From Acidobacteriota bacterium (lineage in GTDB: Bacteria; Acidobacteriota; UBA6911; RPQK01; JAJDTT01), in the NCBI GenBank assembly GCA_965263035.1, contig OZ253580.1, forward strand, positions 5,120,001 through 5,184,000: a DNA stretch of 64,000 bases. The letters are read 5' to 3'. The position numbers and the translations under genes are program-made. A model generated the notes under the pieces. The model was given only the letters and a program-made list of their open reading frames with translations. It ran no database searches and was not told where the DNA came from. Positions within the stretch are counted from its first letter, which is position 1. Each line of letters begins with the position of its first letter. Shown here piece after piece: positions 15,194 through 31,738 of this stretch.

Positions 15194-15291
15194 GCGAACT
15201 GAACAGTCGATGCTATCGGCGTGAGAGCCGATCGGGGCGTGGGCGACTGGCAGATCGCCCCTCCGGGTCGCCTTGATCGGCTTCGGACGCT

Positions 15292-16434
15292 GTGCCATTC
15301 TCGCGGCGAGTGACACAGACCTCGCCCAACACCACCTCATCGCCCCGAAACATCACCAGGAAACGCCTGACGCGGGATCTCATTCGACTTGGGGTCCGCC
15401 GGGGGGACTGCGTCATGCTTCACAGCTCCCTGAGCAGCCTGGGGTGGGTTGACGGGGGTGCGGCGACGGTGGTGGAGGCGTTCCTGGACGCCATGGGACC
15501 GGAGGGGACGTTGCTGACGCCGGCCTTTACGGGAGGAGCCTGGACCGAGTACATGGCCCTTCCGGACTGCCGCGACGTCTGCCCCCAGCCCTTCTGTCCC
15601 AGCCAGTGGGCCAGCCGGGAGGGAGCGATCCCGAACGCCGCCCTGCAGCGCCCCGGTCGTCTCCGAGGGTGCCATCCCACCCACTCCTGGATCGCCAACG
15701 GGGCGCGGCGCCAGGAGGCGCTACGCGGTCAACGGGACTGTCCGACTCCCTGCGGCCGAGGGAATCCGTTCGAGAAGGTGGTGGAGTGGGACGGCTGCAT
15801 CGTCATCCTGGGAGTCGGCGTCGACACCATCACGCTCTGGCACTATTACGAGGATCTCTTGGATGTGGACTATCTGGGCTACTACCATCCGGAGGCGCGG
15901 CATCTCTCCTACTGCGCCACCGGAAAGCGGATTCAATACGACTTCCCCGGGATCATGCAGGACGTGGTCCGAGCCTCCACGATCATGACTGTGGGAAAGG
16001 TCGGGAGAAGCGAGTCGGGGTTGATCCGGGCTCGCGTCTTCCGCCGGTTCATGGCCACCATCATGGCCGACGATCCCGATTGTTTCGTGTTGAGACCGGC
16101 GGATGCGGCAAACGGGGACTTGGCCGCCGACGCATTGGCCAAGGGATCCGCCATGCTCCGGGCCTGGCGCCGGGGTCCCGTTGAATTGCCCGTGCGGATC
16201 GACCTGCCGCAAGGCTACGACGATCTGGTCCGGGAGGACTGCCCCTCTTTTGCCGGCTACCACGAGGCGGTCGGCCGGCGATGGCCTCTCTGCTGGGCCA
16301 ACGACCGGCATCCGGAGTTGCACCACCACGGAGGAATCTTCGATCGTCTGGGAAAGACCTGCTGTGGCCGGTGTTCCTGGCACCATCGCTATCCGGAGGG
16401 ATCGGCCCGGTCGGAGAACGAAGGTCAAGGTTAG
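15292..16434 (+). CDS. AAC(3)/YokD family N-acetyltransferase with Cys-rich C-terminal extension
   Basis: LGVRRGDCVMLHSSLSSLGWVDGG, GTLLTPAF, HPTHS, LGV..T.WHY.E. Confidence 0.8.
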   Translation: MPFSRRVTQTSPNTTSSPRNITRKRLTRDLIRLGVRRGDCVMLHSSLSSLGWVDGGAATVVEAFLDAMGPEGTLLTPAFTGGAWTEYMALPDCRDVCPQPFCPSQWASREGAIPNAALQRPGRLRGCHPTHSWIANGARRQEALRGQRDCPTPCGRGNPFEKVVEWDGCIVILGVGVDTITLWHYYEDLLDVDYLGYYHPEARHLSYCATGKRIQYDFPGIMQDVVRASTIMTVGKVGRSESGLIRARVFRRFMATIMADDPDCFVLRPADAANGDLAADALAKGSAMLRAWRRGPVELPVRIDLPQGYDDLVREDCPSFAGYHEAVGRRWPLCWANDRHPELHHHGGIFDRLGKTCCGRCSWHHRYPEGSARSENEGQG

Positions 16435-16444
16435 CCGGAACTTC

Positions 16445-17162
16445 TCACCGGGATTCGAACCGAAAGGCGAACAGGTCCGCGTCCTTCAGGACGAAGCGAA
16501 GACGCACATCTCGTCCGGCCAGCTCGCCGACGTCCGGACCCTCCGTCCAGCGGACCTCCCGCTCCAGCTCGTCCCCGAACGTGGGCGGGCAATCCTCCAG
16601 GCTGTAGCCTTCCAAGGGATTTCCCGCGGCGTCCTGGATCTCCACGCGAAGGCTCCCCGCCGCCGAAGTGGAGAAGTTCAGCAGCAGCCGATCCCCCAGG
16701 AAGCGAATGGGGCGAGTGACGATCTCCCCGCCCGACATGGGTGCCGAGACCGTCACGAACCCGTCCAACCTCAGGGTGTAACGCCGCAGGTTGAGACTCT
16801 CGCCTGTCCAGTACCCCTCGGTGGCGTAGATCGAAATCTCGTTGGGAGCTCCCTCGATGTGGCTTCGGGTCTCCACCAGACCCCAGTTCTGATTGTTGTC
16901 CCCGTAGACCCAGTTATCCACCGGTCTCAGACCAGGACGGATGAAGGCTTCCCGCCAGCGGTGGAAGTGGATCCGGTCGCGGCTTGCCATCAGGAGACCG
17001 TCGGTGAGGCCGGTTCCGTAACGGAGGCTGACGCCGGCTCGCAGCCGGCGATGCTCCAATCCCGGGAGGGCTCTCATGGAATCGGACCATCCCCGCTCAA
17101 GGTAGCGGTTGGGAAACCCCAGCAGGATGTGAGGGGCCCGGTGGTAGGGAATGATCTGGTTG
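16445..17162 (-). pseudogene. 3' half of a beta-propeller glycoside hydrolase gene split by the integrated element
   Basis: Begins NQIIPYHRAPHILLGFP and continues the 5' half ending ...EHLYTNQ at 29381. Confidence 0.85.
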
Positions 17163-17179
17163 TTATGCACATGTTCCCG
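17146..17179 (+). other. Left attachment site, 34-bp lox-like (13-8-13)
   Basis: AGGGAATGATCTG GTTGTTAT GCACATGTTCCCG; shares core CTGGTTG (17156-17162) with the right end. Confidence 0.75.
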
Positions 17180-17211
17180 TCATATGAATCTGTTACTATA
17201 TGGAGGAACAC

Positions 17212-18174
17212 ATGAGCATAAACCTAGCAGAATCAAGACTTTCCATTGTCCCAAAGATGGAACAGGATGCTACGCTATCCAAGCTTCTGTCTCAATCCCA
17301 CAGCATTAACACGCTCAAGGCATATAATGGACAGGTGAACGTTGCCAAGCGCCGGGGACTTGATACTGACAACCTCACAGACTATTCCATCGCTCGATAT
17401 GTCGCCCTCATGATGGACAAGGGGACCGCCTATGCCAGCGCCTACAATGCCGTGAAAAGCTTGAACTGGTATTGGAGAGAAACCCATGGGCGCAAGGCTA
17501 CTGGCCCCATGACGAAAAAAGCCCTCGAAGGATTCCACCGAGACCATGAAGCGCAGAAGCGAGGCTACGGCCAAGTGGACGGGATCACCTGGAAAATGGC
17601 CGATCAGGTCTGTTCTAGGCTGGATCAACTCCGGACCCTGACCGCCCTTCGAGATTCCATGATCTTCGGCATTATGTCGGATGCCCTTCTCAGAGCTTCC
17701 GAGATGGTCAACGTGAGAGTAGAAGATATCGTGAGAGATCCATCCGGTTCCGGACTGGTAATCATCCGCCGATCTAAAACAGACCAGTACGCCGAAGGGG
17801 ACACCCGATATCTCAGGGCCGAGACTCTGAAACGGATAGACACCTTCCTGGATAGAGTCGGCATCACGTCAGGTCATATCGCCGTCAGGTTCCATTCCAA
17901 CCGGTACACCCGAGCAGTCATGGTAAAGTCTCAGAAGCCACTCAAGACACCTGGAATCCGCCAACTCACCGTCCGAAGGTTGACTCAAGCTGGATACCAT
18001 GGCCGGTTCGGTTCGCACTCGTTCCGAGTAGGGTCCGCTCAGGAACTCGCCCGCAATGGTGCCGGAGATATTGACATCATGAGAGCAGGTGGATGGAAGA
18101 GAGCCGACACCGCCGCGAGATACACAAGGAACGTTGAGGCTGGTAGATCCGCAATGGCGAGACTCAGGGGATAG
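17212..18174 (+). CDS. Cre-like tyrosine recombinase/integrase
   Basis: RBS GGAGG; DALLRASE (R), RRSKTDQ (K), GSHSFRVGSA (HxxR), MRAGGW, ARY (Y); 320 aa, apparently no arm-binding domain. Confidence 0.9.
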   Translation: MSINLAESRLSIVPKMEQDATLSKLLSQSHSINTLKAYNGQVNVAKRRGLDTDNLTDYSIARYVALMMDKGTAYASAYNAVKSLNWYWRETHGRKATGPMTKKALEGFHRDHEAQKRGYGQVDGITWKMADQVCSRLDQLRTLTALRDSMIFGIMSDALLRASEMVNVRVEDIVRDPSGSGLVIIRRSKTDQYAEGDTRYLRAETLKRIDTFLDRVGITSGHIAVRFHSNRYTRAVMVKSQKPLKTPGIRQLTVRRLTQAGYHGRFGSHSFRVGSAQELARNGAGDIDIMRAGGWKRADTAARYTRNVEAGRSAMARLRG

Positions 18175-18181
18175 GAGAAAA

Positions 18182-18694
18182 TCAAGCCCCTGTAGGCCAC
18201 TTAGTACTCACGTAACGATATGACCTAGCGCGTTTTAGATTGCCCACCCTTGCCCACGCTTCGAAGAAGGGCAGAACGCGCCACCACTGTTCCAAGTCAT
18301 TTAACTTGGGATATTGAATCCCGAGTCTGTCCAGCTTATGTGTGACCGTCAACAGTGTCGTCCTCAAATCAGGAGAAATCCGAGGCTTTTGTGGATCGTT
18401 AGAAACTTCGAGCGTGTACTCAACTCCATTCCTCAGATGGTGGATGTCGTCCTCTAGAGCACGAAACTTGTTCTTAGGTCTCCACAAACGGACAGCGTCC
18501 CAACAGAAATTGATGGGAAGCACAATTGAAAACACCACCGCTATACAGGCCAGTAACAGGAAGAAAGGCGGGTGGATTTCTAAGTTTCCTAGCACCTTCC
18601 TCGGACCACTGTGAAGGGTCGAAACAAACATCCAGATTGCCCATATATCGATTCCCATAAAACTAGCAATCGTGGCAATTCTTCGAATCCGCAC
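18182..18694 (-). CDS. Hypothetical membrane protein (element cargo)
   Basis: 170 aa with two N-terminal hydrophobic segments; converges on the integrase. Confidence 0.6.
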   Translation of the reverse strand: MRIRRIATIASFMGIDIWAIWMFVSTLHSGPRKVLGNLEIHPPFFLLLACIAVVFSIVLPINFCWDAVRLWRPKNKFRALEDDIHHLRNGVEYTLEVSNDPQKPRISPDLRTTLLTVTHKLDRLGIQYPKLNDLEQWWRVLPFFEAWARVGNLKRARSYRYVSTKWPTGA

Positions 18695-18844
18695 CCAAGC
18701 ACTCTACACCCTATCCCGTATTTGCGTCGAGTGAACAATCACCCATGAACCGGCCCGGCCCATGCTCTGGTACTCGTGAATCAGGGGAGCCAAGAGAGAG
18801 CCTGTCAGAGCCCCTAGAATCGACGTTCTACCGGGAGACGGCCC

Positions 18845-19927
18845 CTAGCCTCCCTCCATATCAAATCCGCAGATCCTCGCCGCCTGTTCCGCCGTCAGGT
18901 TTCCGTCAGTTCCCGTCATCGAACTGAAAGCCCTCGCCCGGCCTTGTAGGTCGCTGGCAAAAAGCCCGGCAAATCCAAGACTGATTTTCGTATCCAGCTT
19001 GGTAGACAACTCAGATTCGATGATCCGAGAACACGGCTTTAGACTTCCATGAAGAAATCTGCGCCAGCTTTCTCGCTGGGACGATCCCTCCGCTGACGCA
19101 TCCGCCAGCGCTGGCGGTATGCCGTTAGCTGCTAGGATCACTCGGCCCACGTCGCTCCATAAATCTACGTTTCCTTGCGGAATTTTGGCTCCCAATCTCT
19201 GCGGCACCCAGTCTCTTTGCGGAGCACTTCCGCGCCCTTCCGACCATCCGCCGGAAGTCGTCTCAACTAGGCTAATGCCGCCGCTCAAAGCTGCTAGGTC
19301 TGTTCTAAGCTGTTTCAATGGGTCCGAGTCTGTACCGTCTCCGCCATCGCTAGGAATCGGCAGAACGTAGCCAACTGGTCCGGATGTTTCTTCCCCTAGT
19401 CTCGTTTCCAGGTTCGCCCCGAGACTGCCCGTAGAACAGGCAAACGAAAGGGGAGAGATCCCTTTCCAGGGGGAGGACGGATGGACCGCAAACCGCACAT
19501 GGACGACTGAGGATGCCGGATAGGTTCGGGAAGTGGTAGAGCTAGGGCCGGGAAGATCAACTCTGTAGATCCAGGATTCCGGATCATAGGAACCTTCCAC
19601 TTGCCAGCCGGACCCCTCGATTAACCTAACCTGTCCACTCGGCTTGATCTCAATTACAAATAGAACCTCGCCGCGCCGGACCATTCCCCGGCCCATAGAC
19701 GCCAGCACAGCGGGAGACAGTGCCGCAGTGACCGGAGACCCTACCGGAGAAATATCAGCACTTGCCAGACCCCGAGACCATACGCCCGCCGCCACTTCCA
19801 AAGCGCCCAGGCCGTCAGGGTCCGGAGTTATTCCCGTCGCCCTGTCTTGAATCGCCTTAACAATGGCATCCGTATAGGTTTCACTAGAACGAGTTTCGAG
19901 ACCTACAATCCGCCGCCAGTTGAACAT
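18845..19927 (-). CDS. Phage portal protein (HK97-like)
   Basis: GLETRS, RRGEVLF, VVHVRF...PWKGISPL, ILAANGIPP, LKP..RIIESELSTKL. Confidence 0.75.
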   Translation of the reverse strand: MFNWRRIVGLETRSSETYTDAIVKAIQDRATGITPDPDGLGALEVAAGVWSRGLASADISPVGSPVTAALSPAVLASMGRGMVRRGEVLFVIEIKPSGQVRLIEGSGWQVEGSYDPESWIYRVDLPGPSSTTSRTYPASSVVHVRFAVHPSSPWKGISPLSFACSTGSLGANLETRLGEETSGPVGYVLPIPSDGGDGTDSDPLKQLRTDLAALSGGISLVETTSGGWSEGRGSAPQRDWVPQRLGAKIPQGNVDLWSDVGRVILAANGIPPALADASAEGSSQRESWRRFLHGSLKPCSRIIESELSTKLDTKISLGFAGLFASDLQGRARAFSSMTGTDGNLTAEQAARICGFDMEGG

Positions 19928-20292
19928 CACGCAATTACCCCGGCCCTTCTGACCTTCCACGGATTCAGAAGTGATCCCGCTCCCGAGTATTTCAACGCGC
20001 CCAGTTCATCCCGGAAGCGTCTTGAGGATATTTCCGTATTTGCCGTCTTGATCGTTTTTCCCCTGGACGCATCCGCCAGCCATGAAACGATCCTCAAAAC
20101 CGATTCGTCTTTGATAGGGTCCGGAGCTAGGCTTGCATATCGCTCTACCAGTTCCGCCGCTACCGGACCGAACCGAAGCGCCCGAGACTGCCCGGACGAT
20201 CCCGAATCGTTAAAGGCTGACGTGGCAATCCGCATAACTGCGGCATCCTGATCTAGAATATCAACCGGCCAAGGTGCGAGATTCACAGCCAA
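19927..20292 (-). CDS. Probable head-tail connector/adaptor (gp6-like)
   Basis: AAELVERYA..AP..IKDE.VLRIV.WL; C-terminal SGA.SLL.PW..RRAG; position next to the portal gene. Confidence 0.55.
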   Translation of the reverse strand: MAVNLAPWPVDILDQDAAVMRIATSAFNDSGSSGQSRALRFGPVAAELVERYASLAPDPIKDESVLRIVSWLADASRGKTIKTANTEISSRRFRDELGALKYSGAGSLLNPWKVRRAGVIA

Positions 20293-20735
20293 ATTCTACG
20301 CCTCCCTTGCCGGTTCCTCAGTTCCGCCTTTCCCTGAGAATATTCCGGAGCCTTCACAATCGCGACCGCTTCCAAGAACGCGGAATTGATCTCCCGGACG
20401 CCGGAGCCGTTGCGCTTCTCTTTCAGGCTGTAGAATTCGATGCTGGCACCCCGGACCCCAGCCGCTAGAGCCTGGATTATCTCGGAAGTGGGATTTTCAG
20501 AACTGACTTGGATTCTGCCGTCCGGTAGTCGTACCGGCATCGACCTTAATTCTTCACGGTTTCCGTGACCTAGCCTGATAGCGATACCATCAGATCCCCA
20601 TTGCATCGAGCCGGGAGCAAACAATTCTTTTAATCCGCTTGCTATTCTTCCCTCTTGTAGCGCCGTCACTATCAACTTGGATTTTCCCGAATCTTCCCGA
20701 ATCTCACAATTTCCAGCTACTTGTAATTCTCTCAA
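20283..20735 (-). CDS. HK97-family prohead protease-like protein
   Basis: KELFAPGS, H, GASIEF, R.I..A.L..VAIV..PEY. Confidence 0.65.
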   Translation of the reverse strand: MRELQVAGNCEIREDSGKSKLIVTALQEGRIASGLKELFAPGSMQWGSDGIAIRLGHGNREELRSMPVRLPDGRIQVSSENPTSEIIQALAAGVRGASIEFYSLKEKRNGSGVREINSAFLEAVAIVKAPEYSQGKAELRNRQGRRRIWL

Positions 20736-21181
20736 CTTGATCTCCCATACCAGCGCCGAAGCGCTTTAGCGCACTCGGGAGACAATTCTCCCGAAGAATC
20801 CGCCAGCCGAGACGCCGCTACCGCTTCCCCTGGATCTACCGTTACAATCCGCCCTAAAGTGCCAGAGCCGCCAGCCGAGATGATCCGTTCCCGGATACGC
20901 TCAACGGCAAGTGGAGAGCTAGAGCTAGTCGTCGCCCAGCCGTTGAGACCCACACTTGCCGCGAATCTTATAGCAGTCGATTTCAAGTAAAGCGCCATTC
21001 TCAAACCGGGATCGGTAGCAAGCCGGATCGGATATCGTTTCGTAACAGGGTCCCTTTCTATTCCGAGAATCGACGACCAGATAGCCGTAACATCAAAGAG
21101 ATGGTCATCGCTGGACCTGTTCTCTTCGTACCATTTCGATTTACCGGCACCAGCCGGTCCCCTGATTATTCCTATCGGCAT
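20732..21181 (-). CDS. Small P-loop NTPase/kinase-like protein
   Basis: IIRGPAGAGKS Walker A; VDPGE..A..R; ends RRWY. Confidence 0.65.
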   Translation of the reverse strand: MPIGIIRGPAGAGKSKWYEENRSSDDHLFDVTAIWSSILGIERDPVTKRYPIRLATDPGLRMALYLKSTAIRFAASVGLNGWATTSSSSPLAVERIRERIISAGGSGTLGRIVTVDPGEAVAASRLADSSGELSPECAKALRRWYGRSS

Positions 21182-22443
21182 TAGACAAGTTTGAACGCCC
21201 GGAGATCAAAAGAATCTTCTCTAATCACTTTGAAATTCCAGAGACTAATTATCGTCAAAGCAACTTGACCGGATGCCGCCGCCGTATACGGATCTCGAAC
21301 GATCTCCACACCTTCCCAGATCGGAGCCACAGCGCCGGTAGCTAGTCGTCTCGTAACAATCGCCGTAGAAACATCCTTATCGGGTCCGGTTGTAGGAGCA
21401 ACCGGAAGATTTCCAGAAACACGAACGCTGGAAAGATCGGCCAAGTATTCCAGAGCCGTTCTAGTCACTCCCGCTGTCATGGTCTTTGTACTCAATTCTG
21501 GATAAAGATCGGAAGGGACCAACAGCCCCACGTCTGCCGCAGTTGCCGCATATTTTCCGTCCACCGCCCCAGTGACGGATTTCACGGCATCCGCCCACGT
21601 AAAAACATCGCTAGGAGTCGTCGGAGCCGTGATCGTTGTAAGGATTCCGGAGACATTAGGTGCCGTTCCGTTTCCCGTAATGGATTGAAGATCAATTGCA
21701 TCAGATACAGTGCTTGATAAGTCTGCCCTCAGAGTATCGTCCATCCCGTCCAACTGCGCCGAATCCTCCACAGAGAACAGATACCGCGCCGTGATCCTGG
21801 TAGGCGTCAGCACTGAGCTACTGAACGTCGCCGCTACCGCATTCTGAGCCACGCCCCGAGTCTTATTCTCTGCCGTAGCACCGGCAGTCAGAAGCGGATA
21901 TGCCGTGGTCCCAGTTGGGACCGTCGGCATGGAAACTCCGAGAAACTGCGCCGCAGAAGCGGCAAAGACTCTCCGGATTATTTGAGTCTGCCGATTCGGG
22001 AAATTTAAAGCCCCTAGAGCCGTCGCCACGTCTGACCGCTTCTCAGGTTCAAGCGCTTCCGGACCCGCCAGAGCAGCCCAGGGGAAGCGCCCAGGGGCTG
22101 CTTTCTCGCCTAACATGGCCGTCCGTAATTCAGACTCGGGAGAAGATTCGGCAAGCGGATTCTGTCCCCATGCTTCCAGCACGTAGCTAGAGAGTTTCGC
22201 TTTCCGAATGAGAGACCGAATTTCCGCTCCCTCGCCGTCTTCTCTATCAACCGGCGGGATAGCCTCATTCTCCGCGATGATGGCCGCTCTATGCCTAGCT
22301 TCAAGATCGGAAAACTCTTTCCGCAGGGTCTCGCCCTCAGATCTAATATCCTCAGTAAAGTCTGCCCCGGATAATCCAGCTATGGAATTCAGTCTTTCGC
22401 GCACCTCAGAAATTCGCAGTGTTATTTTCTGGCTTGTAGTCAT
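21181..22443 (-). CDS. Major capsid protein (HK97 fold) with N-terminal coiled scaffold domain
   Basis: 420 aa; helical N-terminus; LTPTRI, DL..ITGNGT.P..SGI, IVRDPYT.A..GQV.L. Confidence 0.8.
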   Translation of the reverse strand: MTTSQKITLRISEVRERLNSIAGLSGADFTEDIRSEGETLRKEFSDLEARHRAAIIAENEAIPPVDREDGEGAEIRSLIRKAKLSSYVLEAWGQNPLAESSPESELRTAMLGEKAAPGRFPWAALAGPEALEPEKRSDVATALGALNFPNRQTQIIRRVFAASAAQFLGVSMPTVPTGTTAYPLLTAGATAENKTRGVAQNAVAATFSSSVLTPTRITARYLFSVEDSAQLDGMDDTLRADLSSTVSDAIDLQSITGNGTAPNVSGILTTITAPTTPSDVFTWADAVKSVTGAVDGKYAATAADVGLLVPSDLYPELSTKTMTAGVTRTALEYLADLSSVRVSGNLPVAPTTGPDKDVSTAIVTRRLATGAVAPIWEGVEIVRDPYTAAASGQVALTIISLWNFKVIREDSFDLRAFKLV

Positions 22444-22459
22444 TTTTTATCACCTTTAG

Positions 22460-22795
22460 TTATAAATAGTTATCAGTTATGCTTATTCTAGTCGTTTTAT
22501 TTGAAAGTGTCGTTAAATACTCTCGCCATTCTACACTATCGGGGCTGATACGTGTATTATTTTCCTTGCGAGTTTTGGAAATATGACAGGGTACACATAA
22601 AGACTGGATATTGGATCTCCCATACAGAGAACCGCCAGCATTTCTAGGCTTGATATGATCCGCTTCCAGCTTCCCGCGTTTCCCGCAGCGCTGGCACTTA
22701 AAGCCCGCTTCCCGTAAGACTCGCCAGCGCAGCCGCTCCCACCTTCTGCCCTTCAATCCGCTCATGCCGCCCGTACCACTCCGCCATTCCGCCAT
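22460..22795 (-). CDS. HNH endonuclease (packaging-associated)
   Basis: RWERLR..VL...GFKCQRCG, EADHI.P...GG, NIQSLC..CH..KT. Confidence 0.9.
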   Translation of the reverse strand: MAEWRSGTGGMSGLKGRRWERLRWRVLREAGFKCQRCGKRGKLEADHIKPRNAGGSLYGRSNIQSLCVPCHISKTRKENNTRISPDSVEWREYLTTLSNKTTRISITDNYL

Positions 22796-24864
22796 GATCC
22801 GCCAGAATTCTTTATCCTCATGGTCTCGGCCAATCCAGCCGCAATAACTGCCGCTGAGAGACTGTCTATCCTCGATAATCCGGACCTTTTATCTAATGCC
22901 GGATTTCCGGCACCGTCATAGCGGAGACGGGAGCCAGCTACCGCACTCGACAGCATCATCGAATCGCCGTGAAATAGTTTCTTTTCCATCACGAACCGCT
23001 GGAATGCTCGAACGTCATGGGAGCCATCCGCTGTAGCACTCGCCCCGGTTCCGCGCCAGACAACCGGAGACCGGGAGCCAGCATCCGCTAGAGCCTGTTC
23101 CGTCTCTGCCCGCCGGTATCTATCCGCCCCGATCACTAGCACTCGTTCGCCAGCCAGTTTCGATAGGACAGACTGCAAAAAGACTCCGACCCGGACCATA
23201 CGCCCCTGATGGAGATTCAATTCTCCAGACTTCCTCATTAGGTCATATCGGATGCCGTCTCGACGTTGCCGAGCTTCGATCCCGGGCATCGACGGAAAAG
23301 CCCCAAAAACTTCGATCCGACCAGTTCCAGGCCATAAGGCTGTTGCGGCAGTCATAGAAGCGGACCCGCCTAGATCAATGCCCAAAACACATTTCCCGTC
23401 TCTTTCCGGTTGCGGACCGCTGCAACGCTTCCAGTCTGAAGGGGAAACGATCCTTTCCACGGATGGCGACCCCGGCAGATTCAAGTCTTGAGACCTAAAG
23501 AAAATTTCATCAGATGGAGTCGATTTAGCCCGCCTGGATTCATGCTCCATATACGCCGTGGCTTTGATGGTCCCTAGACCTGGATTAGCGTTTTCCCACT
23601 CAATTCGGTTCAGTAGGTCGCAATCCTTACTAGATGCCTGGAACAGATGCGCGACAACGCCAGCGGCTTCCCGCCTTTTCATAATTTCGGGAATGTAGGG
23701 ACCGCTCCCCCATATGGACAACGCTATAAATTTCCCGTTTTTCGCCGATACCGCAGCCCTCATGCTGGCGACTAGTTCCCGATCTCGTTCGGATAGCAAG
23801 CCCAGTTCGTCAACAATCGCTAGATCCAAGCTGGCGGAATGCCCGCCCATGCCCGAGTCACCAGCCAAAATCTCAACCTGACCATGCTTACTAACAATCT
23901 TTCCAGGCCATGGACTTCTCTTAAACAATAATGTTCTGGATAGTCCACTTGCTCCCGCTATTTGCTCAATTTGTTTCGTTAGTTCCCTCGCTTTAGCCTT
24001 GTTAACACTGCAAATTCCAGCCCGCCACCCACCTTTAACGTTTCTTAATGGCCCTACCAAGTGACCTAGGCAGAATACGGCAACTATTGCGGATTTAGCA
24101 TTCTTTCTAGCGAGACAGAGCAGCGCTTCTCTTGTCGATGGCTTTAAGCAATCACCTAGAAAATTGCGTCCAAAAGGTGGCAAAGCCATAGGCAGACCCT
24201 CTTTAGGATGCCCAGGGGGAACTATTAATGTCTCTTCTGCCCATGCTGACAACCGTTCTATCTTGGATTTCTTCCGTTTAACACTGCTACTCGGCCCTTT
24301 TCCCGGTATAACGTTGTTTTTCCGGTTGATTTTCCTCCAGGCACGAGCATTACACGCCCTAGTAGCATACTTTTTAGGTTTTTTGGTATTCTGTATCAAT
24401 TCAACGCCGCAGCCACAAGCACAGTATTTAAGTCTATTCCCTACTAGGCCAAGTCGCTTATTAGTAAGAAAAGCCTGAATTCTGCAATTATCGGTAGCGT
24501 ATAGAGTAGGTATCCCGTGGAGTTTATGTATCCGAGCTGGACGACCGCACCCGCAAGCGCAGTCCGGACCAGGATTCGGCTTTTCGTAAACCGTTTGATA
24601 TGATGCCCGATGCCGACAATTTTTTGAAGCGAATCCAGTCCATTTCCTCAGTGACTTCTCAGAGCGTGAAACCGGTTCACCACAACCGCCCCGGCAACGT
24701 GGTCTAGTCTCTGGTCTCAGTGAGTCTAGGCCACCCCTCGATCCCCCCGGTTCGGATGGATTCGGAACAGGGTCCCGGACCATTTTTTGATCCATATTCT
24801 CGTATGTACAAATTTTTGGATCATCCCCTTTGACCATCTTCGATCGAGAACCGACAAGCATCAA
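22762..24864 (-). CDS. Terminase large subunit with N-terminal Cys-rich repeats
   Basis: Walker A LARKNAKS, Walker B LAIVDELG, W..ANPGL, nuclease LGIDLG, RID...A; three N-terminal CxxGCG...CR/CN repeats. Confidence 0.8.
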   Translation of the reverse strand: MMLVGSRSKMVKGDDPKICTYENMDQKMVRDPVPNPSEPGGSRGGLDSLRPETRPRCRGGCGEPVSRSEKSLRKWTGFASKNCRHRASYQTVYEKPNPGPDCACGCGRPARIHKLHGIPTLYATDNCRIQAFLTNKRLGLVGNRLKYCACGCGVELIQNTKKPKKYATRACNARAWRKINRKNNVIPGKGPSSSVKRKKSKIERLSAWAEETLIVPPGHPKEGLPMALPPFGRNFLGDCLKPSTREALLCLARKNAKSAIVAVFCLGHLVGPLRNVKGGWRAGICSVNKAKARELTKQIEQIAGASGLSRTLLFKRSPWPGKIVSKHGQVEILAGDSGMGGHSASLDLAIVDELGLLSERDRELVASMRAAVSAKNGKFIALSIWGSGPYIPEIMKRREAAGVVAHLFQASSKDCDLLNRIEWENANPGLGTIKATAYMEHESRRAKSTPSDEIFFRSQDLNLPGSPSVERIVSPSDWKRCSGPQPERDGKCVLGIDLGGSASMTAATALWPGTGRIEVFGAFPSMPGIEARQRRDGIRYDLMRKSGELNLHQGRMVRVGVFLQSVLSKLAGERVLVIGADRYRRAETEQALADAGSRSPVVWRGTGASATADGSHDVRAFQRFVMEKKLFHGDSMMLSSAVAGSRLRYDGAGNPALDKRSGLSRIDSLSAAVIAAGLAETMRIKNSGGSWRNGGVVRAA

Positions 24865-25301
24865 CGACCACTCCCGCCACGTCTCTCGAAATTTCCACGA
24901 CGTAGCCTATCCGTCACCACTCGCACCGTTCCAGCTACCGCCCTTTGGACAAAAGCGGCAGGGACACCAAGCCGAGCCGATCCTGATGCGTTTAATTTCT
25001 CGATATGCCGCAGCCCATTAGAAACGTAGGTTTTTCCTCGTTCCAACTTGTAGCCAGTAAGGATAGCCCCGGAGGACGTTAGCCTATTCTCCCGAGCCTC
25101 CCGCAGCCCTCGAACTGTCCCATCCCCTTGCCCGCCCATCGACGGATTCCAGTTACTTGCCGTCCACGTCGATTCTTTAGGGCATTTATTATAAAGCTGG
25201 CGTGACGCTTCAAGTGTGGCGTTTACTACAGTGTTTTCGACAATTCGCCTAATCTCTTTGCGGATTGCCTGGATTTGAGCCTTTTCGCTTGCCGTGGGCA
25301 T
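24861..25301 (-). CDS. HK97 gp10-like neck/tail-completion protein
   Basis: CP.ESTWTASNW, YVSNGL.HIEKLN..GSA....PAAFVQRAV. Confidence 0.55.
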   Translation of the reverse strand: MPTASEKAQIQAIRKEIRRIVENTVVNATLEASRQLYNKCPKESTWTASNWNPSMGGQGDGTVRGLREARENRLTSSGAILTGYKLERGKTYVSNGLRHIEKLNASGSARLGVPAAFVQRAVAGTVRVVTDRLRRGNFERRGGSGR

Positions 25302-25352
25302 ATTTTGACTCTTGGAAACGGAACAGTTACAGGGGAATGGTCATTGACCTAG

Positions 25353-27117
25353 CCCGGATATCTCATCAGAAAGATTGATAAAGGCCGCGTTTTCTGCTAT
25401 AAGTGTTGTGTAATCAATAACTTACAAAGCAGAAGGGACGCGACCTTATGACCGCAGAGTGTACCAGAATAAAGCTCAGATTTCAGGGCCTGGACGGACG
25501 GGATGTCGTGGGCCGGTTCGACGGCGGCGAGATCACCTCCGACGCCGGTGGCGTGCTCCTGCGCGAAGTGGAGCAGCGGACCCGGATTCTGGGTCGTCTG
25601 AGCGAATGCTTCACCGACTATCGAGACTCGGATCGAGTCGAACACCCGGTGGAGGCGTTGATCAAACAGCGGGTGCTGGGGCTGTGCCTGGGCTACGAGG
25701 ACCTCAACGACCACGACGAGTTGTGCCGGGACCGGCTCTTGGCGCTGTTGTGTGATCGAGATGATCTGACGGGGGAGTTCCGGCGCGTGGAGTCGGATCG
25801 AGGCAAGCCGCTGGCAGGCAAGAGCACCCTGAACCGACTGGAGCGGACTCCGTTGGAGGGACCGGAGGGCGCGTACAAGAAGATCGTGGCCGACCCGGCG
25901 GGGATGGACGAGCTGCTGCTGGAGGTGTTTGTGGAAGCGCATCCGGAGCCCCCGGAGGAGGTGATCCTGGATGTAGACGCCACGGACGATCCGCTGCATG
26001 GGAAGCAGGAGGGACGGTTCTTCCACGGCTATTACAAACGCTACTGCTACCTGCCGCTGTACGTCTTCTGTGGGGAACACCTGTTGCGTGCGCGGCTGCG
26101 CACGGCGGATCGAGGCGCGGCCCACGGGGTGGTGGCGGAGTTGGAACCAATCGTGAGGCGGCTGCGTGAAGCGTGGCCCCAGGTGCGGATCACGGTTCGA
26201 GGGGACAGTGCCTTCTCCAACGACGAGTTGATGGTCTGGTGCGAGAAGGAAGGGATCGATTACGTCCTGGGGTTGGCGCAGAACGATCGGCTGAAGCGGA
26301 GGATCGCGACCCGGATGGAGACCGTCCGGCAGTTGCAGCGGGCGATCGGGAAGGCCGTGAGGCAGTTCCAGGAACTGCGCTATCAGACGCACAAGAGTTG
26401 GTCGTGCGAGCGCCGGGTGGTGGCGAAGGTGGAGCACCTGCCCCGGGGAAAGAACCCGCGATTCATCGTGACTTCGGTCCCGGTCCAGGAATGCGATGGG
26501 CGAAGATTGTACGAGGAGGTCTACTGCGCGCGGGGAGACATGGAGAATCGGATAAAGGAACAGCAGATGGGTCTGTTTGCGGACCGCACGTCGACCCGGA
26601 AGCTGGCGGGGAATCAACTGCGGTTGTATTTCTCGGCATTCGCCTACGTGATGATGGAGACGTTGCGACGGGTGGGGCTGGCGGGGACGAAGCTGGCGCG
26701 GGCGCAGAGCTGGACCCTGCGGGTGAGATTGCTGAAGATCGGGGCACAGGTCCGGATCACCAGCCGCAAGGTCTGGTTGTCCTTTTCCGAGAGCTATCCG
26801 TATGCGGCGCTGTTGAGGACGGCTCTGACGCAAGTGCAAGCCCTCCCGCTTCGCTGTTAGCAACGGATGGAAAGAACTCTTTGGACGATGGCGACTTGGG
26901 AGTCCCCAGGATGGACTGCGCCCCGGAGTGGGCACCGGGTCGAGAGTCGTCGCTCAGAAGCGCAGGATGGGCGTCAAAAGGCTCTGGAGAAGCGCTGCAT
27001 CTGGCCGTTGGTCGGCACGTTCGAGCACGAAAACTGCCTCTTGAACTCGTATGGATAAAGAATCACCCAGACGACGGTTCAACTTCCGTTTATTGTTCTA
27101 CTGATGAGAAATGCAGG
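25353..27117 (+). mobile_element. IS1380-family insertion sequence
   Basis: Terminal inverted repeats CCCGGATATCTCATCAG / CCTGCATTTCTCATCAG; CTAG duplicated at 25349-25352 and 27118-27121; GC much higher than its surroundings. Confidence 0.9.
25448..26860 (+). CDS. IS1380-family DDE transposase
   Basis: FDGGEITSDAG, GYEDLNDH, LDVDATDD.LHG.QE, RGDSAF, YCARGDMENRIKE. Confidence 0.95.
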   Translation: MTAECTRIKLRFQGLDGRDVVGRFDGGEITSDAGGVLLREVEQRTRILGRLSECFTDYRDSDRVEHPVEALIKQRVLGLCLGYEDLNDHDELCRDRLLALLCDRDDLTGEFRRVESDRGKPLAGKSTLNRLERTPLEGPEGAYKKIVADPAGMDELLLEVFVEAHPEPPEEVILDVDATDDPLHGKQEGRFFHGYYKRYCYLPLYVFCGEHLLRARLRTADRGAAHGVVAELEPIVRRLREAWPQVRITVRGDSAFSNDELMVWCEKEGIDYVLGLAQNDRLKRRIATRMETVRQLQRAIGKAVRQFQELRYQTHKSWSCERRVVAKVEHLPRGKNPRFIVTSVPVQECDGRRLYEEVYCARGDMENRIKEQQMGLFADRTSTRKLAGNQLRLYFSAFAYVMMETLRRVGLAGTKLARAQSWTLRVRLLKIGAQVRITSRKVWLSFSESYPYAALLRTALTQVQALPLRC

Positions 27118-27164
27118 CTAGGGGAAAAGGCTCCATTCCCCTGCAACAAGGAGATATCAAAGAC

Positions 27165-27173
27165 AGTATAGCA
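27165..27173 (-). promoter_or_regulatory. Extended -10 promoter (TGCTATACT) facing the packaging operon
   Basis: Same 9-mer as at 29247-29255; lies upstream of the gp10-terL operon once the IS is removed. Confidence 0.45.
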
Positions 27174-27426
27174 AAAAGATATGACTATTTATTGGGAATA
27201 TAGCCTCGAAGCCATAGTAAACAATGAAGGTAGGCTATTCACTACTGACAGTATCACTAAGGACACTCCAAATTAAGGCTCCGAGACTATAGGGTGATGA
27301 ATCCAACTGCATTATCTCATAAAAGGTATGACTAAAAATCTTTCCAGACCAAAGAGAATAGATAAAGCGTCAGCTTATAAACGATATGCCACAACGCCAA
27401 GAATATCAGCACGAGTACAAGCAACG

Positions 27427-27663
27427 TCACCGAGACGCCACTCTCCAGCGACGATCAAGCCGGGAGCCATCGACCCACCGCCAAGCTTGTATCCCTTCCA
27501 ATGGCCCCCAGTGCAAGGTAGCGATCTCTGCCCCATTGCCTTTTAGGATCAGCCTACCGCGCATCCGATCCCACTCTACAGCCGTCGCCCTGTAGATTCG
27601 GCAGTCATTCGATTTCCCCTGGAATTGCACTTGAACCGACTTGATCTTGATTTTTTGCATCAA
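27427..27663 (-). CDS. Small hypothetical protein
   Basis: 78 aa, co-oriented with neighbours; an overlapping + strand ORF is the alternative reading. Confidence 0.4.
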   Translation of the reverse strand: MMQKIKIKSVQVQFQGKSNDCRIYRATAVEWDRMRGRLILKGNGAEIATLHWGPLEGIQAWRWVDGSRLDRRWRVASR

Positions 27664-27691
27664 GTGAGTCTAGTGTACCAGGGAGACAGCG

Positions 27692-28105
27692 TCAGTCGTC
27701 GTGGTGTCCAGCGATCCGCGTCAAATCACGATAAAGGTCCCAAATATCACGAGCGATCATTGCCCCAGTTTTTCGGATAATTCTTCTCATCGTAGCTTCA
27801 ATTCGACCCTCACTAGGAGGACGGATTCCCGGAGGAAGGGTCTCGATGGGATACACATACGATTTATGTAAGTCGCTTCCATCATACTTTGTTGATTGTT
27901 CCATTATTTTTCTGAATTTATGTCTTAAGCCATCTGGAAAATCTTGTTCTCTCAGTGAAGATAGGTGGTAAATCAGCGCGTCTTTCAATCTATTCCTCAC
28001 ATCTCCCTTCCCAACGCACATAGTTTCAATCGCTAAAGTTACTCGTTCAAGAACGTCCTTTGCTTTTTCTTTGTTTCCCATCGGAACTAGACCCCCGTAA
28101 GCCAT
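27692..28105 (-). CDS. Hypothetical helical protein (element cargo)
   Basis: 137-aa AT-rich ORF; G.GDVRNRL, DFP..LR, EGRIEATM. Confidence 0.6.
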   Translation of the reverse strand: MAYGGLVPMGNKEKAKDVLERVTLAIETMCVGKGDVRNRLKDALIYHLSSLREQDFPDGLRHKFRKIMEQSTKYDGSDLHKSYVYPIETLPPGIRPPSEGRIEATMRRIIRKTGAMIARDIWDLYRDLTRIAGHHDD

Positions 28106-28108
28106 CCC

Positions 28109-28514
28109 TCACTTAGTGGCATCTCCGCAATCTTTCATGACCCGACATATATCGCTCATAGACTCTTTGATTCTTATAATTTTCATTGATTGCGATTTAT
28201 TGAGTTTACGGAGCACAGTCGCTTCGGACTGTGAAACCTTGTCGTCTGGAAACTGTTGGGATGGAATATTTGCATTATAAAACCGGATGTTTTCGCATCG
28301 GTCCAGCAATACTGGCCGTGGCTTATTCGATGACATCTCAGGTCGGAGTTCAAATTTTTTGGATTCCAAATTTTCATACCAAACATGCTGGGCAACTACT
28401 GTGACCAGCAAATACCTTGGATCAGCATCACAGGGCTTTTCAGCCTGCACCAGACCCGTGAACAGAACCGCCAGCAATGCAAAATTCTTGCCAAAGTTGC
28501 AGCCCTCACTCATG
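28109..28514 (-). CDS. Hypothetical exported Cys-containing protein (element cargo)
   Basis: Signal-like FALLAVLFTGLVQA after MSEG; upstream RBS GGAAGG. Confidence 0.5.
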
Positions 28515-28792
28515 TTCCCCTTCCTTCCTTCTCGCCCTAGTCTCCAAAATTTGCCGTATCCGCTCACGGGATATCCCGAACCGGCCACCGATCCTCTCTA
28601 ACGTCTAATCCGCAGCCCGAAGGGACCGGATGACCCGGTTCCGTATTGGCCGATGGTGTGGAACTGCTTTTTTCATGCCGCTTTATTCAGGATTTCTTCT
28701 TTTTTTATTTTTAACACTTCAACCTATAAAGTGAAACAACTTAACGATGCTTTCTCTAGTCTGGAAGATACTCAGGAAGGATTCTCACTCGG

Positions 28793-29240
28793 CCCCTTCT
28801 CTCTCCCCCTATAGATCCTGTTTCGATTACCCTGGATAGATTCAGGCAGAGAACTATCTAGCACTGTGCATGCGTTAGGAAAATACCTTCCGCACACACA
28901 GTCCTGTTCCTTGTCTGAATCTATGATCCCGCTCCGATCAGAGCCTATCAAGACCCAGGCAGAGACCCAAAAGTTGTGGATCTCATGGCGTCAGCTACTT
29001 TATCGCGGAGCAACTTCTCACACGTCATGCTCCCCTTCCGACGCTCCGAACTGGGGAAGAATCCTAGTGCATGATGCACGGCAGTGGATTCATTTTTTGC
29101 GGATTACTTACTTCCTCGATCCCTGCCGCCAAGCGGTTCGAGAAAGGTGCAATGTCACGCCCGCTCCAATCTTGAATCCAGCCTCAAGACTCCGAGTGGA
29201 TCAGACCCGGTATCCCAATCGCCTTAAGGCTGGATTCGAT
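28793..29240 (-). ncRNA. Candidate highly structured non-coding RNA (about 410-450 nt)
   Basis: Extended -10 just upstream; about 9 consecutive hairpins whose non-Watson-Crick pairs are mostly G-U on the minus strand; ends in a purine tract. Confidence 0.55.
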
Positions 29241-29246
29241 GGAGGG

Positions 29247-29255
29247 AGTATAGCA
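29247..29255 (-). promoter_or_regulatory. Extended -10 promoter of the candidate ncRNA
   Basis: TGCTATACT; predicted +1 near 29240, 3 nt before the first 17-bp stem. Confidence 0.5.
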
Positions 29256-29330
29256 GATAGGTCTGTAAAAAAGAAGCGTTTTTCCAACTTTTTATCATAC
29301 CATTGTAAATTTAATGCTCAATGCCGAGGC

Positions 29331-29359
29331 TTGACACTGGAAAGGGAATTTAGTACAAT
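29331..29359 (+). promoter_or_regulatory. Near-consensus sigma70 promoter pointing out of the element's right end
   Basis: TTGACA-N17-TACAAT. Confidence 0.7.
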
Positions 29360-29370
29360 AGGCGAGTAGT

Positions 29371-29404
29371 AGGGAACATACTGGTTGGTGTAGAGATGCT
29401 CGTC
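29371..29404 (+). other. Right attachment site, 34-bp lox-like
   Basis: AGGGAACATACTG GTTGGTGT AGAGATGCTCGTC; core CTGGTTG at 29381-29387. Confidence 0.75.
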
Positions 29405-30212
29405 CGGAGAACCGGTGGTAGTTGAGCCAGACCGGATCGGTCCAATTCAGAAAATCCTGGGAAGTTCCGGTCATGACGTCCCGGATACCCTTGGTTCTCG
29501 GCTGATTCTCCGCAGTCTGCCTGAAGTCGCGGTGGTATTCGCGGTACTCGTTTCTGACCGAATCCCAGAAAGCCAGGTTCTGGGAGTCGAAGTAGCCCTT
29601 GGTGATAACCGGGCGGTCCGCCATCAACTCCCAGTGGATGGCGTCGGCCGACTTCCAGGCGTAGAGTCCCCATTTACGGCTCAAGGAGAAGGCCTTGTAG
29701 CGCGCGTCGGGCGAGGCCGCCGGATTTGCGTCCTTGAAAGGGACGAAGTTCCGAATCGTATCCCCGTTTGGGAGCCGATCCAGGAGGATGTTGTTCCGCT
29801 TCGACCCCTCGAACTCGACCAGGCCCAGTTGGGGCCGGTACCAGTGGATCCCGTCCAGACTCTCGGCGTAACAGGTCACCTGCCGGCGTGGGAACTCGAG
29901 CTTCTTCCCGGTCACGAAGTGCCAGCCCCGGTAGTACATGCGATAGCGGTTTTCATCCTGGAAGATAGTGAAAGTGAAGCAGGCATTCCCCTCCCACGGA
30001 CGATCGGTCACCAGGGCCACTCCTTGGGGAATCGGGCGTTGCAACCGGAGTCGAGCCTCGCCCCGGAGTTCTTCCACCAAGCTCGGTTCCACGAACAACT
30101 CCAGCCGGGAACCGATGTCCAGGACCTCCGAGTGGAGGCTCCAGCAGAGCATGGGGAAGAGCATTGCGAGGATCCGCGGCCTACTGAAAAGCGACGTCAA
30201 GGTCCGGTTCAT
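29381..30212 (-). pseudogene. 5' half of the split glycoside hydrolase gene (also has a +1 frameshift near 29416)
   Basis: MNRTLTS signal, ELFVE, DRPWEG, CYAESLDG.HW.RP, FDSQN.AFWD; GSPDEHLYTNQ lies in a shifted frame. Confidence 0.85.
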
Positions 30213-30232
30213 TCCTGTTTCTTCCTTTCGCT

Positions 30233-31738
30233 TCAGTCCGAGGTGCGGGCCGGGAAGATCCGCGACAGCACCAGAGCCGATCCGAACGTGATCAGCGAGG
30301 AGACCGGGATCACCCACATCCAGGCCAACCGGGGGAGGCCGAAGAGCCAGTGGCCCTGGGCCCAGACCAGGCCCGCCGACATTCCCGCCAGCGCCGATAA
30401 GATGACCGCCCGGCCGCTGGCCGGAACCTTCAGTATGGCCAGAAACATCATGGCCCCCAGAGTGCCCACCAGGAAGCTGCTGATGCGACCCGTCAGGTCG
30501 AAGAGGTTCCCCCGCTGATCGTCGGGAATCGAATCCAGAAGGAAGCAGGTCAGTATGGCCACGACTCCCGCCGCCACGGTGACGGCGCGCGCCAGGATCA
30601 TCTCGGCGCGGGGACCGGCAACCGTCCTGCGCAGGCGCCTGTAGTAGTCGGTGATGATCACGGACGAGATGGAGTTGATTCCCGAATCCAGGCTCGACAT
30701 GGCGGCGGAGAAGAGGGCGGCCACCACCAACCCGGCCAGGCCCCGGGGGAGGACGTGGCCGATGAAGTGGGGGAAGACGCTGTCCGTGTCCGCGGGGAGA
30801 TGGGTCCGGTAGTAGGAGTAGAGAGCCATGCCGCACAGGCTCAGGAGGAGGGTGATGACGACGCTCGCCGTCAGGTTGCAGGCGAAGGAGCGGCGGGCCG
30901 ACCTGGCCGAGTCGGTGCTGAGGTAGCGTTGCACGGCCACCTGGTCTCCGGCCGCGGTGCAGATCCACCAGAAGAAGGTCCAGGTGATCATTCCGAACCA
31001 GCTCAACCGGACCGTCGGATCGAGGCTGAAGAGCGGTTGCGGTTCCATCTCAGCCGCCGCCATTTCCTGGTACCAGGTGATCGGTCCGGTCCCGGCGTCG
31101 AAGGCGATGTAGCCGATGGTGAAGAGGGCGCCCCCCAGGAGAATGAAGAACTGGACCACGTCGGTCCAGATGACGGCGCGGATTCCCCCCAAAGTCGTGT
31201 AGAGGGTTCCCACGGCCGCCACCCCCAGGACCACGGTCGCGAAGGGCAGGCCGCTGATGGTCGCCAGTGCGCCGGCCGCCGTGAAGACGATGGTGCCCAT
31301 CCACGCCAACCGGATCAGGACGAAGATGGAGGCCCCGAAGAGGCGCGTGGGCAGATCGAACTGCCGCTCCAGGCATTCGTAGGCCGAGGTGATCTTCAAT
31401 TTCATCAGGAAGGGGACCACCAGGTAGCCCACCAGTACAAAGACCAGGGGATAGGAGAGCAGCTGCGAGTTGGCGCCCAGGCCGTGCTTGATGATCTCAC
31501 CGGGGTGGGAGAGATAGGTGATGGTGGAGATGATCGAAGCCAGCAGGCTCAGTCCGACCGCGAACCAGGGCATGTTCCGCCCCGCCAGGAAGTACTCCTC
31601 GGTGTCGCTCTGGCGCCGGCTGAAGTAGTAGCCGAGGAGGACCACGGCGGCCAGGTAGAGGAGAATGGCCGCGTAGTCGATGCCGTGGAGCCCCTGAAAT
31701 CGGTCGGGCGGACCGCCCAGGGCCAGCAAGGTGCTCAT
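30233..31738 (-). CDS. Sodium:solute symporter (SSS/SLC5 family)
   Basis: EEYFLAGRNMPW, YTTLGGIRAVIWTDVVQ, DQVAVQRYL, AAMSSLDSGINS. Confidence 0.9.
   Translation of the reverse strand: MSTLLALGGPPDRFQGLHGIDYAAILLYLAAVVLLGYYFSRRQSDTEEYFLAGRNMPWFAVGLSLLASIISTITYLSHPGEIIKHGLGANSQLLSYPLVFVLVGYLVVPFLMKLKITSAYECLERQFDLPTRLFGASIFVLIRLAWMGTIVFTAAGALATISGLPFATVVLGVAAVGTLYTTLGGIRAVIWTDVVQFFILLGGALFTIGYIAFDAGTGPITWYQEMAAAEMEPQPLFSLDPTVRLSWFGMITWTFFWWICTAAGDQVAVQRYLSTDSARSARRSFACNLTASVVITLLLSLCGMALYSYYRTHLPADTDSVFPHFIGHVLPRGLAGLVVAALFSAAMSSLDSGINSISSVIITDYYRRLRRTVAGPRAEMILARAVTVAAGVVAILTCFLLDSIPDDQRGNLFDLTGRISSFLVGTLGAMMFLAILKVPASGRAVILSALAGMSAGLVWAQGHWLFGLPRLAWMWVIPVSSLITFGSALVLSRIFPARTSD

Follow-up and report, generated by a model that had tools for sequence, protein, structure and literature searches.

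P4 and the phage-inducible chromosomal islands (PICIs) take the capsid proteins of their helper phage and carry a primase or replication initiator (Rep) gene. A complete temperate tailed prophage has tail, lysis and replication modules in a genome usually of at least 30 kb, and a gene transfer agent (GTA) of the RcGTA type is a single, vertically inherited cluster that has tail genes, lacks an integrase and packages host DNA. The closest described systems to the locus presented here are the capsid-forming PICIs (cf-PICIs). In experiments, these release capsids that lack a tail and pick up free ones (bioRxiv 10.1101/2025.02.11.637232), and the SatelliteFinder model for them lists 11 components, at least nine of them required (PMC10085698). 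Here we describe copy A, an element at positions 17156-29387 of a 64,000-nt window (the whole stretch of DNA that was analysed) from the single-contig, 6.2-Mb genome of a soil Acidobacteriota bacterium, where it is one of six such intact elements. We think it rather likely that copy A is a capsid-forming, tail-borrowing satellite and belongs to a large unannotated family of ~10-kb integrative elements with their own small HK97-type head; the family probably spreads by borrowing the tails of other phages. This reading is supported by exact ends and an empty orthologous site, a complete set of head and packaging genes with nothing tail-like in copy A, six paralogous elements, synteny across orders, and neck genes and satellite-typical cargo in members of the family. 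Paralogous elements of the same genome are called B-G below, and L- and G-numbers denote related loci and genomes.

Ends and insertion site of copy A

Copy A is a real, cleanly bounded mobile element, integrated in a protein-coding gene at a 7-bp core. The core, CTGGTTG, stands at both limits, and one flank carries the C-terminal and the other the N-terminal part of a single host gene on the minus strand. In a genome of the same genus (G170), the orthologue of this gene (91% amino acid identity) is an open frame of 538 aa that reads across one CTGGTTG, and both flanks in the window align contiguously to it across that single core, which is therefore an empty site. The N-terminal host fragment carries a 1-bp insertion directly to the right of the junction, by attR, that shifts its frame, and the element-side arms partly resemble the target (about 16 of the 22 nt left of the core, counted by hand). 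GC content is ~0.65 in the flanks vs 0.46-0.57 inside copy A, apart from 25.3-27.1 kb, where it resembles that of the host, and the element measures ~10.45 kb once a 1,774-bp insertion sequence (IS) of the IS1380 family is subtracted. An earlier note on this DNA, made from its letters, had called both ends intact and exact and put the size without the IS at about 10.5 kb; its limits, 17156 and 29387, coincide with the cores, and the measured size agrees. The split gene itself (16445-17170 and 29388-30200, minus strand) is one of a much-expanded set of paralogues, for which each same-genus genome has 82-94 matches, and neither fragment has a Pfam match.

Head and packaging genes of copy A

Between its cores, copy A encodes an integrase (PF00589), a large terminase (TerL), an HNH endonuclease, an HK97-fold major capsid protein (MCP), a P-loop protein, a prohead protease and a portal protein (Table 1), all named in the earlier note and all borne out by library matches, paralogues or a structural model. 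The integrase had been described as Cre-like, and its 17 matches among PDB sequences are indeed all to Cre or Tre, over residues 134-322 (best E 3e-15). The portal scores 34.8 bits against PF04860, below the cut-off of 39.1, which its counterparts in B, C, L034 and L078 exceed. Similarly, the protease was identified through paralogues that match Peptidase_S78 (1.8e-13 in G, 6e-5 in D and 1e-16 in L038). In a Foldseek search of the PDB, the model of the P-loop protein is closest to the kinase domains of T4 Pnk and Clostridium thermocellum Pnkp (E 3e-5, TM 0.6-0.66), and a profile search of PDB sequences gave matches at the level of the Walker A motif only; the predicted polynucleotide-kinase-like fold argues against a replicase. 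Its gene is found in A-D, L034 and L082, and the small gene orf121 is kept between protease and portal in A-D and in many relatives.

TerL has an N-terminal extension of ~200 aa with three Cys-rich repeats (C..C ... Y-A/C-T/S-x-x-C-R/N-x-x-A, encoded within 24192-24864 on the minus strand), which is missing from five paralogues and for which neither Pfam nor the PDB gives a match. The closest TerL, that of L034 (55% identity), has a single copy of the motif and shares the same deviant Walker A, RKNAKS; the repeat and RKNAKS are therefore features of a lineage, and the deviant Walker A, considered as a mark of decay, was rejected as such. Copy A has no family match to a small terminase (TerS); phrog_4581 ("terminase small subunit") matches only parts of the HNH and P-loop proteins, and the Cys-rich domain may be a candidate substitute for TerS.

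Searches with Pfam, PHROGs and NCBIfam recognised no tail, lysis, holin, primase or Rep gene in copy A, and no open reading frame (ORF) matched an AlpA-, MerR- or Stl-type regulator or a repressor. An O-like initiator profile reached hhalign probabilities of at most 1.1% against orf137, orf170 and orf159. These profile searches bear out the earlier observation that copy A has no recognisable tail, replicase, repressor or separate terS gene, and none of its cargo ORFs, one of which might have proved to be a Rep, resembles one in PHROGs or hhalign. At its size and between exact ends, without tail, lysis and replication modules, copy A is not a complete temperate tailed prophage. Among the remaining genes, orf170 has no paralogue in the other elements, the model of orf137 (pLDDT 78) is all-helical with no fold match at E<=0.001 in PDB or BFVD, and PADLOC gave no match for six copy-A proteins, four of them cargo ORFs.

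Sister elements in the same genome

The genome holds six further capsid paralogues, 27-37% identical to that of copy A and most with TerL beside them. Six elements are complete (A, B, C, D, E and G; ~9.3-11.8 kb), F is decayed, and at least seven relics consist of a portal only. All six complete elements have integrase, TerL, HNH, capsid, protease and portal genes with the core ORFs open. Protein clustering places the P-loop kinase and orf121 in A-D and finds no accessory ORFs common to different copies. No tail, lysis or primase gene was recognised in the six by Pfam on 104 ORFs; when 81 accessory ORFs of B-G and related loci (L034-L040) were compared with PHROGs, seven had any match, none of them to a primase, Rep or tail protein. 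B is inserted in a gene for an SSF (sodium:solute) symporter and C in an HlyD-family gene. A direct-repeat search for the att cores of B-G returned repeats at chance level only, so the limits of these elements rest on split host genes (B and C), GC or gene content.

In a capsid tree (quick maximum likelihood, midpoint root, several long branches), the six copies of this genome fall on different branches and were therefore acquired separately. Six diverged elements with the same core, together with look-alikes in other Acidobacteriota, are not explained by a one-off deletion. The earlier claim that copy A is not simply a truncated prophage gains from this, as relatives in other genera and orders have the same minimal content.

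Element E lies at 5097900-5108000 of the genome, ~12 kb before the start of the window, and its TerL is inverted relative to its other head genes. A tblastn search with the family AlpA found three places in the genome, none inside elements A-G. Three pairs of P4-type integrase and AlpA genes occur at 149867-151313, 2118567-2120063 and 2930117-2931643; portal relics at 143693-146206, no more than 4-6 kb from one of these pairs, point to a decayed element of a P4-integrase/AlpA subtype.

Integrated relatives in other genomes

With a capsid profile, and with at most four candidates scored per genome, the family turned up in six of the 401 genomes that were sampled from the phylum, including the genome of copy A. 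Gene order is the same in the same genus, Vicinamibacterales, Terriglobia and Bryobacterales. Members in Vicinamibacterales, among others, carry a P4-type integrase with an arm-binding domain along with AlpA (AlpA in L036, L037, L056, L082 and others), and the cargo of relatives includes SIR2, methylase, PDC-S48 and PD-T7-4-like defence genes; judging by gene content, this combination is the pattern of known satellites. The type of integrase does not define the class, given that some members combine this head module with a P4-type integrase and AlpA, and the proposal in the earlier note of a class built on a Cre-like integrase is not supported.

Two genomes of Vicinamibacterales each contain a family member, with the genes from TerL to portal, AlpA, cargo and a P4-type integrase, that adjoins a C-terminal fragment of a major tail protein (L036, G367:C1:1453000-1472999, at 15110-19553; L074 at 15648-19920). 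Beyond the fragment come tail chaperone and tape measure genes, and the opposite side has a CI-like repressor and a major-head-like ORF. The adjoining tail-gene fragment, with prophage genes on both sides, indicates that the element appears to sit inside the tail-tube gene of a siphovirus-like prophage.

The capsid profile retrieved 1,468 cluster representatives at E<=1e-30 out of 1.84 billion, 2,772 at 1e-10 and 4,222 at 1e-3, and a word-indexed capsid search found 39 unnamed metagenomic clusters. One metagenomic relative is 88% identical to copy A. Against 50,697 GenBank phage records, the capsid had one marginal match and the portal none.

Free relatives of 10-12 kb

The family is wider than the earlier note supposed. 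All 20 related contigs in IMG/VR fall within 4.8-12.4 kb, and metagenome-assembled genomes of GTDB include stand-alone related contigs of 10,551 and 11,233 bp. L059, L064, L078, L079, L060 and L067 are whole contigs of 10.5-11.9 kb that lack an integrase and have an adaptor fused to, or preceding, a fibre-like protein. A tblastn search with the integrases of our genome found none in any IMG/VR contig, and only L056, which lacks the large protein and also has an O-like replication initiator, has a P4-type integrase in Pfam. Between adaptor and portal, the free forms encode a protein of 730-1035 aa, with tail-fibre and collagen matches in L079; an endolysin is found in L078, and replication genes include an O-like initiator (L059 and L064) and a VapE primase-helicase (L079). 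L064 has a 99-bp terminal repeat, and the starts of five diverged contigs, about 220 nt before TerL on its upstream side, differ by no more than ~20 nt, which points to a fixed packaged (physical) end. The smallest isolated tailed phage measures 11.6 kb; these free relatives may be autonomous phages of that size or less. In a separate case, L080, part of a 31,994-bp contig, identical stretches of 256 bp at both ends of an 11,445-bp segment give a tandem period of 11,189 bp, so that the contig reads as a concatemer or over-assembled circle of a mini genome.

The earlier description of the class as devoid of regulators and Rep does not extend to this wider family, given AlpA in relatives, the O-like initiator of L056, VapE in L079, and the fibre-like protein and endolysin of free forms. 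That note had also held that close homologs with rep, primase or tail genes would make copy A a deletion derivative. Such genes do occur, but in distant relatives (31-40% capsid identity) and not in close ones.

In the capsid tree, 13 of the 16 contigs labelled free or large-protein forms (three of the 16 are too short to reach the portal) fall into one clade (SH-aLRT 96), and the integrated forms into another group (88). A broader reading, which we entertain but consider unlikely in its full form, would unite the two as one ancient, very large minimal-HK97 lineage, which at 50% identity comprises more than 1,400 capsid clusters. On this view, the free forms would be phages in their own right, below the size of every tailed phage isolated so far. 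The integrated forms would be their satellites, or those of long-tailed phages in general, devoid of replication genes and regulators; they would exploit the helper by way of an adaptor domain common to both and, in some bacteria, even insert into the tail-tube gene of the helper prophage.

The same comparison bears on the view that the chromosomal copies are reduced, non-mobile remnants of temperate mini-phages, decaying after the loss of their fibre, lysis and replication genes. It is favoured by the genes that free relatives do carry, with the fibre-like protein exactly between adaptor and portal and with endolysin and Rep or primase-helicase, and by orf121 being equivalent to the N-terminal domain of that large protein (phmmer 3.6e-7 against a fibre-like protein of 900-1000 aa); the decayed copy, the portal relics and the presence of IS1380 in three copies (A, F and G) also fit. 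However, six copies as diverged as these keep all core ORFs open and each has its own integrase, the same minimal layout with abutting adaptor and portal genes recurs in other genera and orders, and in the capsid tree the integrated forms, themselves deeply diversified, stand apart as a group instead of forming tips within the free clade. We therefore hold decay from mini-phages to be distinctly improbable.

Another possibility is that copy A is a satellite specifically of the related free mini-phages, whose adaptor-fibre protein would assemble on the satellite portal and give it adsorption and injection. In its favour, orf121 of A, C and D is homologous to the N-terminal ~100 aa of the large protein in L078 and L079 (phmmer 6.5e-8 to 4e-4), L064 and L060 have the adaptor ORF immediately before the large one, and the head modules are homologous throughout. 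Such a specific partnership is nevertheless very doubtful, as no free form was found in our genome (tblastn) or in its runs, most free forms sit in the other capsid clade, and the titles Limisphaerales, Phototrophicaceae and Bryobacterales on free forms are binning labels of single contigs.

Insertion sequence, inverted repeats and non-coding region

The IS1380 copy in copy A has a read depth ~15x that of the flanks and lies between the arms of a 15-nt inverted repeat, 25 nt upstream of orf146. The insertion is recent, lengthens copy A by 17% and splits promoter-proximal cargo genes from the head operon. Packaging from cos sites in lambda has size limits, and by analogy copy A, lengthened to this extent, is probably crippled by the IS and no longer transferable.

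The earlier note had also made a structured non-coding region part of its definition of the class. This is not borne out, since an Rfam search of 16500-30000 at E<=1 gave no match and the 800-nt leader folds with a weak z of -2.3 (1 of 20 shuffles folded as well). At 29331-29359 (plus strand), a sigma70-like site (TTGACA-17-TACAAT, 11/12) points outward over attR and would drive the integrase gene in a circular form; it is a lead only, because such sites are no commoner than in shuffles.

Table 1. Features of copy A and its att sites, in window coordinates.
Feature	Position	Strand	Evidence or remark
attL core CTGGTTG, left end	17156..17162		single copy at the uninterrupted G170 site (L042); left flank aligns up to the core
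Tyrosine integrase, Cre-like, 324 aa	17200..18174	+	PF00589 6e-13
orf170, hydrophobic N-terminal segments by eye	18182..18694	-	no match in Pfam, PHROGs, NCBIfam, PADLOC
Terminator-like hairpin just past portal gene	18744..18764	-	consensus scan, 9-bp stem and T-run; pattern match only
Portal protein, 371 aa	18845..19960	-	PF04860 1.4e-8; phrog_12 8.7e-7
orf121, conserved small head gene, presumed head-tail adaptor	19927..20292	-	placed between protease and portal
Prohead protease, S78-type, 150 aa	20283..20735	-	homology to paralogues matching Peptidase_S78
P-loop kinase, polynucleotide-kinase-like predicted fold, 149 aa	20732..21181	-	AlphaFold2 model, pLDDT 91
HK97-fold major capsid protein, 420 aa	21181..22443	-	PF05065 3.7e-8
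HNH endonuclease, 111 aa	22460..22795	-	PF01844 2.4e-10; phrog_589 4.5e-21
Large terminase TerL, 700 aa	22762..24864	-	phrog_9 4.4e-48 from residue 165; PF20441 5e-11
orf146, possible neck/tail-completion (gp10-like) protein	24861..25301	-	phrog_169 E 1.7e-3 only
15-nt inverted repeat, loop holds the IS	25326..25340 / 27133..27147		repeat pair I18, 93% complementary
IS1380-family insertion sequence, later arrival, host-like GC	25349..27122	+	NF033539 7.8e-116; at least 15 genome copies, 96-100% identity
orf137, conserved helical protein	27692..28105	-	22 unnamed metagenomic homologue clusters
orf159, signal-peptide-like N-terminus by eye	28109..28588	-	no match in Pfam, PHROGs, NCBIfam, PADLOC
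ORF-poor leader / attP-proximal region	28589..29380		two short inverted repeats, pairs I7 and I19
attR core CTGGTTG, right end	29381..29387		right flank aligns to the uninterrupted G170 site from the core onward

Possible route of transfer and the question of a helper

If copy A is a tail-borrowing satellite, its Cre-like integrase would recombine the 7-bp core inside the host gene, as the ends and the empty site suggest, and would excise the element as a circle. The circle would then be cut in a cos-type manner and packaged by TerL and HNH into capsids of MCP, protease and portal, with the Cys-rich domain of TerL possibly standing in for TerS, and a small head would be assembled. The orf121 protein, perhaps with orf146 or a neck protein, would dock a tail from an infecting or neighbouring phage. 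As no replication gene is recognisable, copying would have to rely on functions of the host or helper. Clearer Neck1/gp10-like genes stand beside TerL in B (phrog_5, 4e-15) and L034 (phrog_5, 1.2e-4), and neck or tail-completion genes occur elsewhere in L056 (1.2e-9) and L078 (PF04883).

A resident tailed prophage was sought in the genome with models for tape measure, sheath, baseplate-J, Terminase_6N and GpA-type terminase (PF10145, PF04984, PF04865, PF03237 and PF05876), none of which matched, and the sole PF05065 match in the genome is copy A. With no resident tailed prophage detectable in this way, the helper would be an infecting phage, or free tails would be used.

Several points weigh against tail borrowing by copy A. 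It has no known helper, no particle, excision or packaging has been seen, and the genome-wide absence of tail genes rests on five Pfam models. The proteins expected to dock a tail, orf121 and orf146, are the weakest annotations in the element. The earlier terms "gp10-like" and "adaptor" accordingly stand in part: orf121 is a conserved small gene, its role as adaptor being presumed with no match in the libraries or PDB, and orf146 has its single phrog_169 match, no useful match among PDB sequences, and hhalign probabilities of 0.1-0.3% against the Neck1-like genes of paralogues. No Rep, regulator or TerS was found, which leaves unexplained how the element is induced, how it replicates into packageable concatemers and how cos is recognised, and the IS may have left copy A inert. 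Finally, assembled contigs of four public runs (X1, X2, X3 and X5) over 15500-31000 show the integrated state only, although contigs cannot show rare forms; they bridge both junctions and contain neither the attP circle for which the earlier note had proposed to look nor an empty-site joint at the cores. A joint from 16648 to 29528, with a 20-nt side, occurs in X2 and X3 off the att cores and is probably cross-talk between paralogues.

The persistence of six intact copies with no evident helper or detectable tailed prophage, the 4-6 ORFs per element that match nothing in the databases searched, and the membrane-bound or secreted look (by eye) of orf170 and orf159 would suit a capsid vehicle that is autonomous and needs no tail, be it a particle of GTA-like or domesticated kind or a virus whose delivery device has escaped recognition, drawing its exit and entry functions from orf170, orf159, orf137 and orf146, but this is highly improbable, as accessory ORFs are not conserved between elements in the way an essential delivery machine should be, each element has its own integrase and a differing insertion site, unlike a domesticated GTA, and the neck and tail-completion homologues of family members point to docking of long tails.

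Comparison with known systems

Phage satellites have been catalogued almost only in Proteobacteria and Firmicutes, and copy A, if read as a tail-borrowing satellite, adds Acidobacteriota, a phylum dominant in soil but little studied, to the hosts of capsid-forming satellites. It is also a more reduced form, with integrase and head/packaging genes only, and a genome can contain as many as six intact copies. Although comparison with sequenced phages reveals almost nothing of the head genes, more than 1,000 metagenomic protein clusters are found with the capsid profile, which points to a large reservoir of small capsid-borne elements that are unannotated or called "viral contigs". The family offers a system for asking how a satellite manages without its own replication and small terminase, and its link to free 10-12-kb genomes a concrete case in which to study how small phages give rise to satellites, or satellites to small phages. 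The literature searched, which did not cover subscription journals and supplements, contained no description of this family.

Copy A shares with P4-like satellites and classical PICIs an integrative, small and probably helper-dependent character, and its relatives share their P4-type integrase and AlpA; it differs in bringing its own capsid and in having no Rep. An RcGTA-type GTA does not fit an element with its own integrase, six diverged copies at different sites and no tail genes. The "twilight-zone" mini HK97 genomes of 5-11.6 kb, for which a satellite lifestyle is one hypothesis (Nat Commun 2026, PMC13669383), are also close to the family; the group detailed there lacks portal and terminase and has encapsulin-like MCPs, whereas the family of copy A has TerL, HNH and portal, and the main text of that paper contains neither "HNH" nor "Acidobacteri". 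The Streptomyces satellites MulchMansion and MiniFlayer are described as encoding encapsidation machinery and lacking key replication genes, as copy A does (deCarvalho et al., 2023, PMC10690885). By the same description, one of them is non-integrating, with a tail adaptation for attachment to its helper, whereas copy A is integrated and has no tail gene.

The likeness is closest to cf-PICIs such as EcCIEDL933 and KpCIDSM30104, which are islands of ~10-15 kb with their own HNH, TerL, portal, protease, HK97-type capsid and neck genes. Tail and lysis genes are missing in both, the relatives of copy A carry variable defence cargo, and some of them have AlpA and a P4-type integrase. Measured against the SatelliteFinder model, copy A has integrase, HNH, TerL, portal, capsid and prohead protease, with no tail or holin gene found, and reaches at most 8 of the 11 components, two of the eight weak; as nine are needed, it is not filed as a cf-PICI. 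The differences lie in the lack of recognisable AlpA, primase-replicase and TerS in copy A and its five genome-mates, in the gene order (TerL-HNH-capsid-(kinase)-protease-adaptor-portal), in a Cre-like integrase that targets protein-coding genes, and in a capsid and portal nearly unmatched among GenBank phage records. They extend to the host phylum, as PMC10085698 reports Proteobacteria and Firmicutes and its main text nowhere contains "Acidobacteri". In the functional sense, that of an element with its own head and no tail, copy A would work like a cf-PICI, as far as its genes tell.

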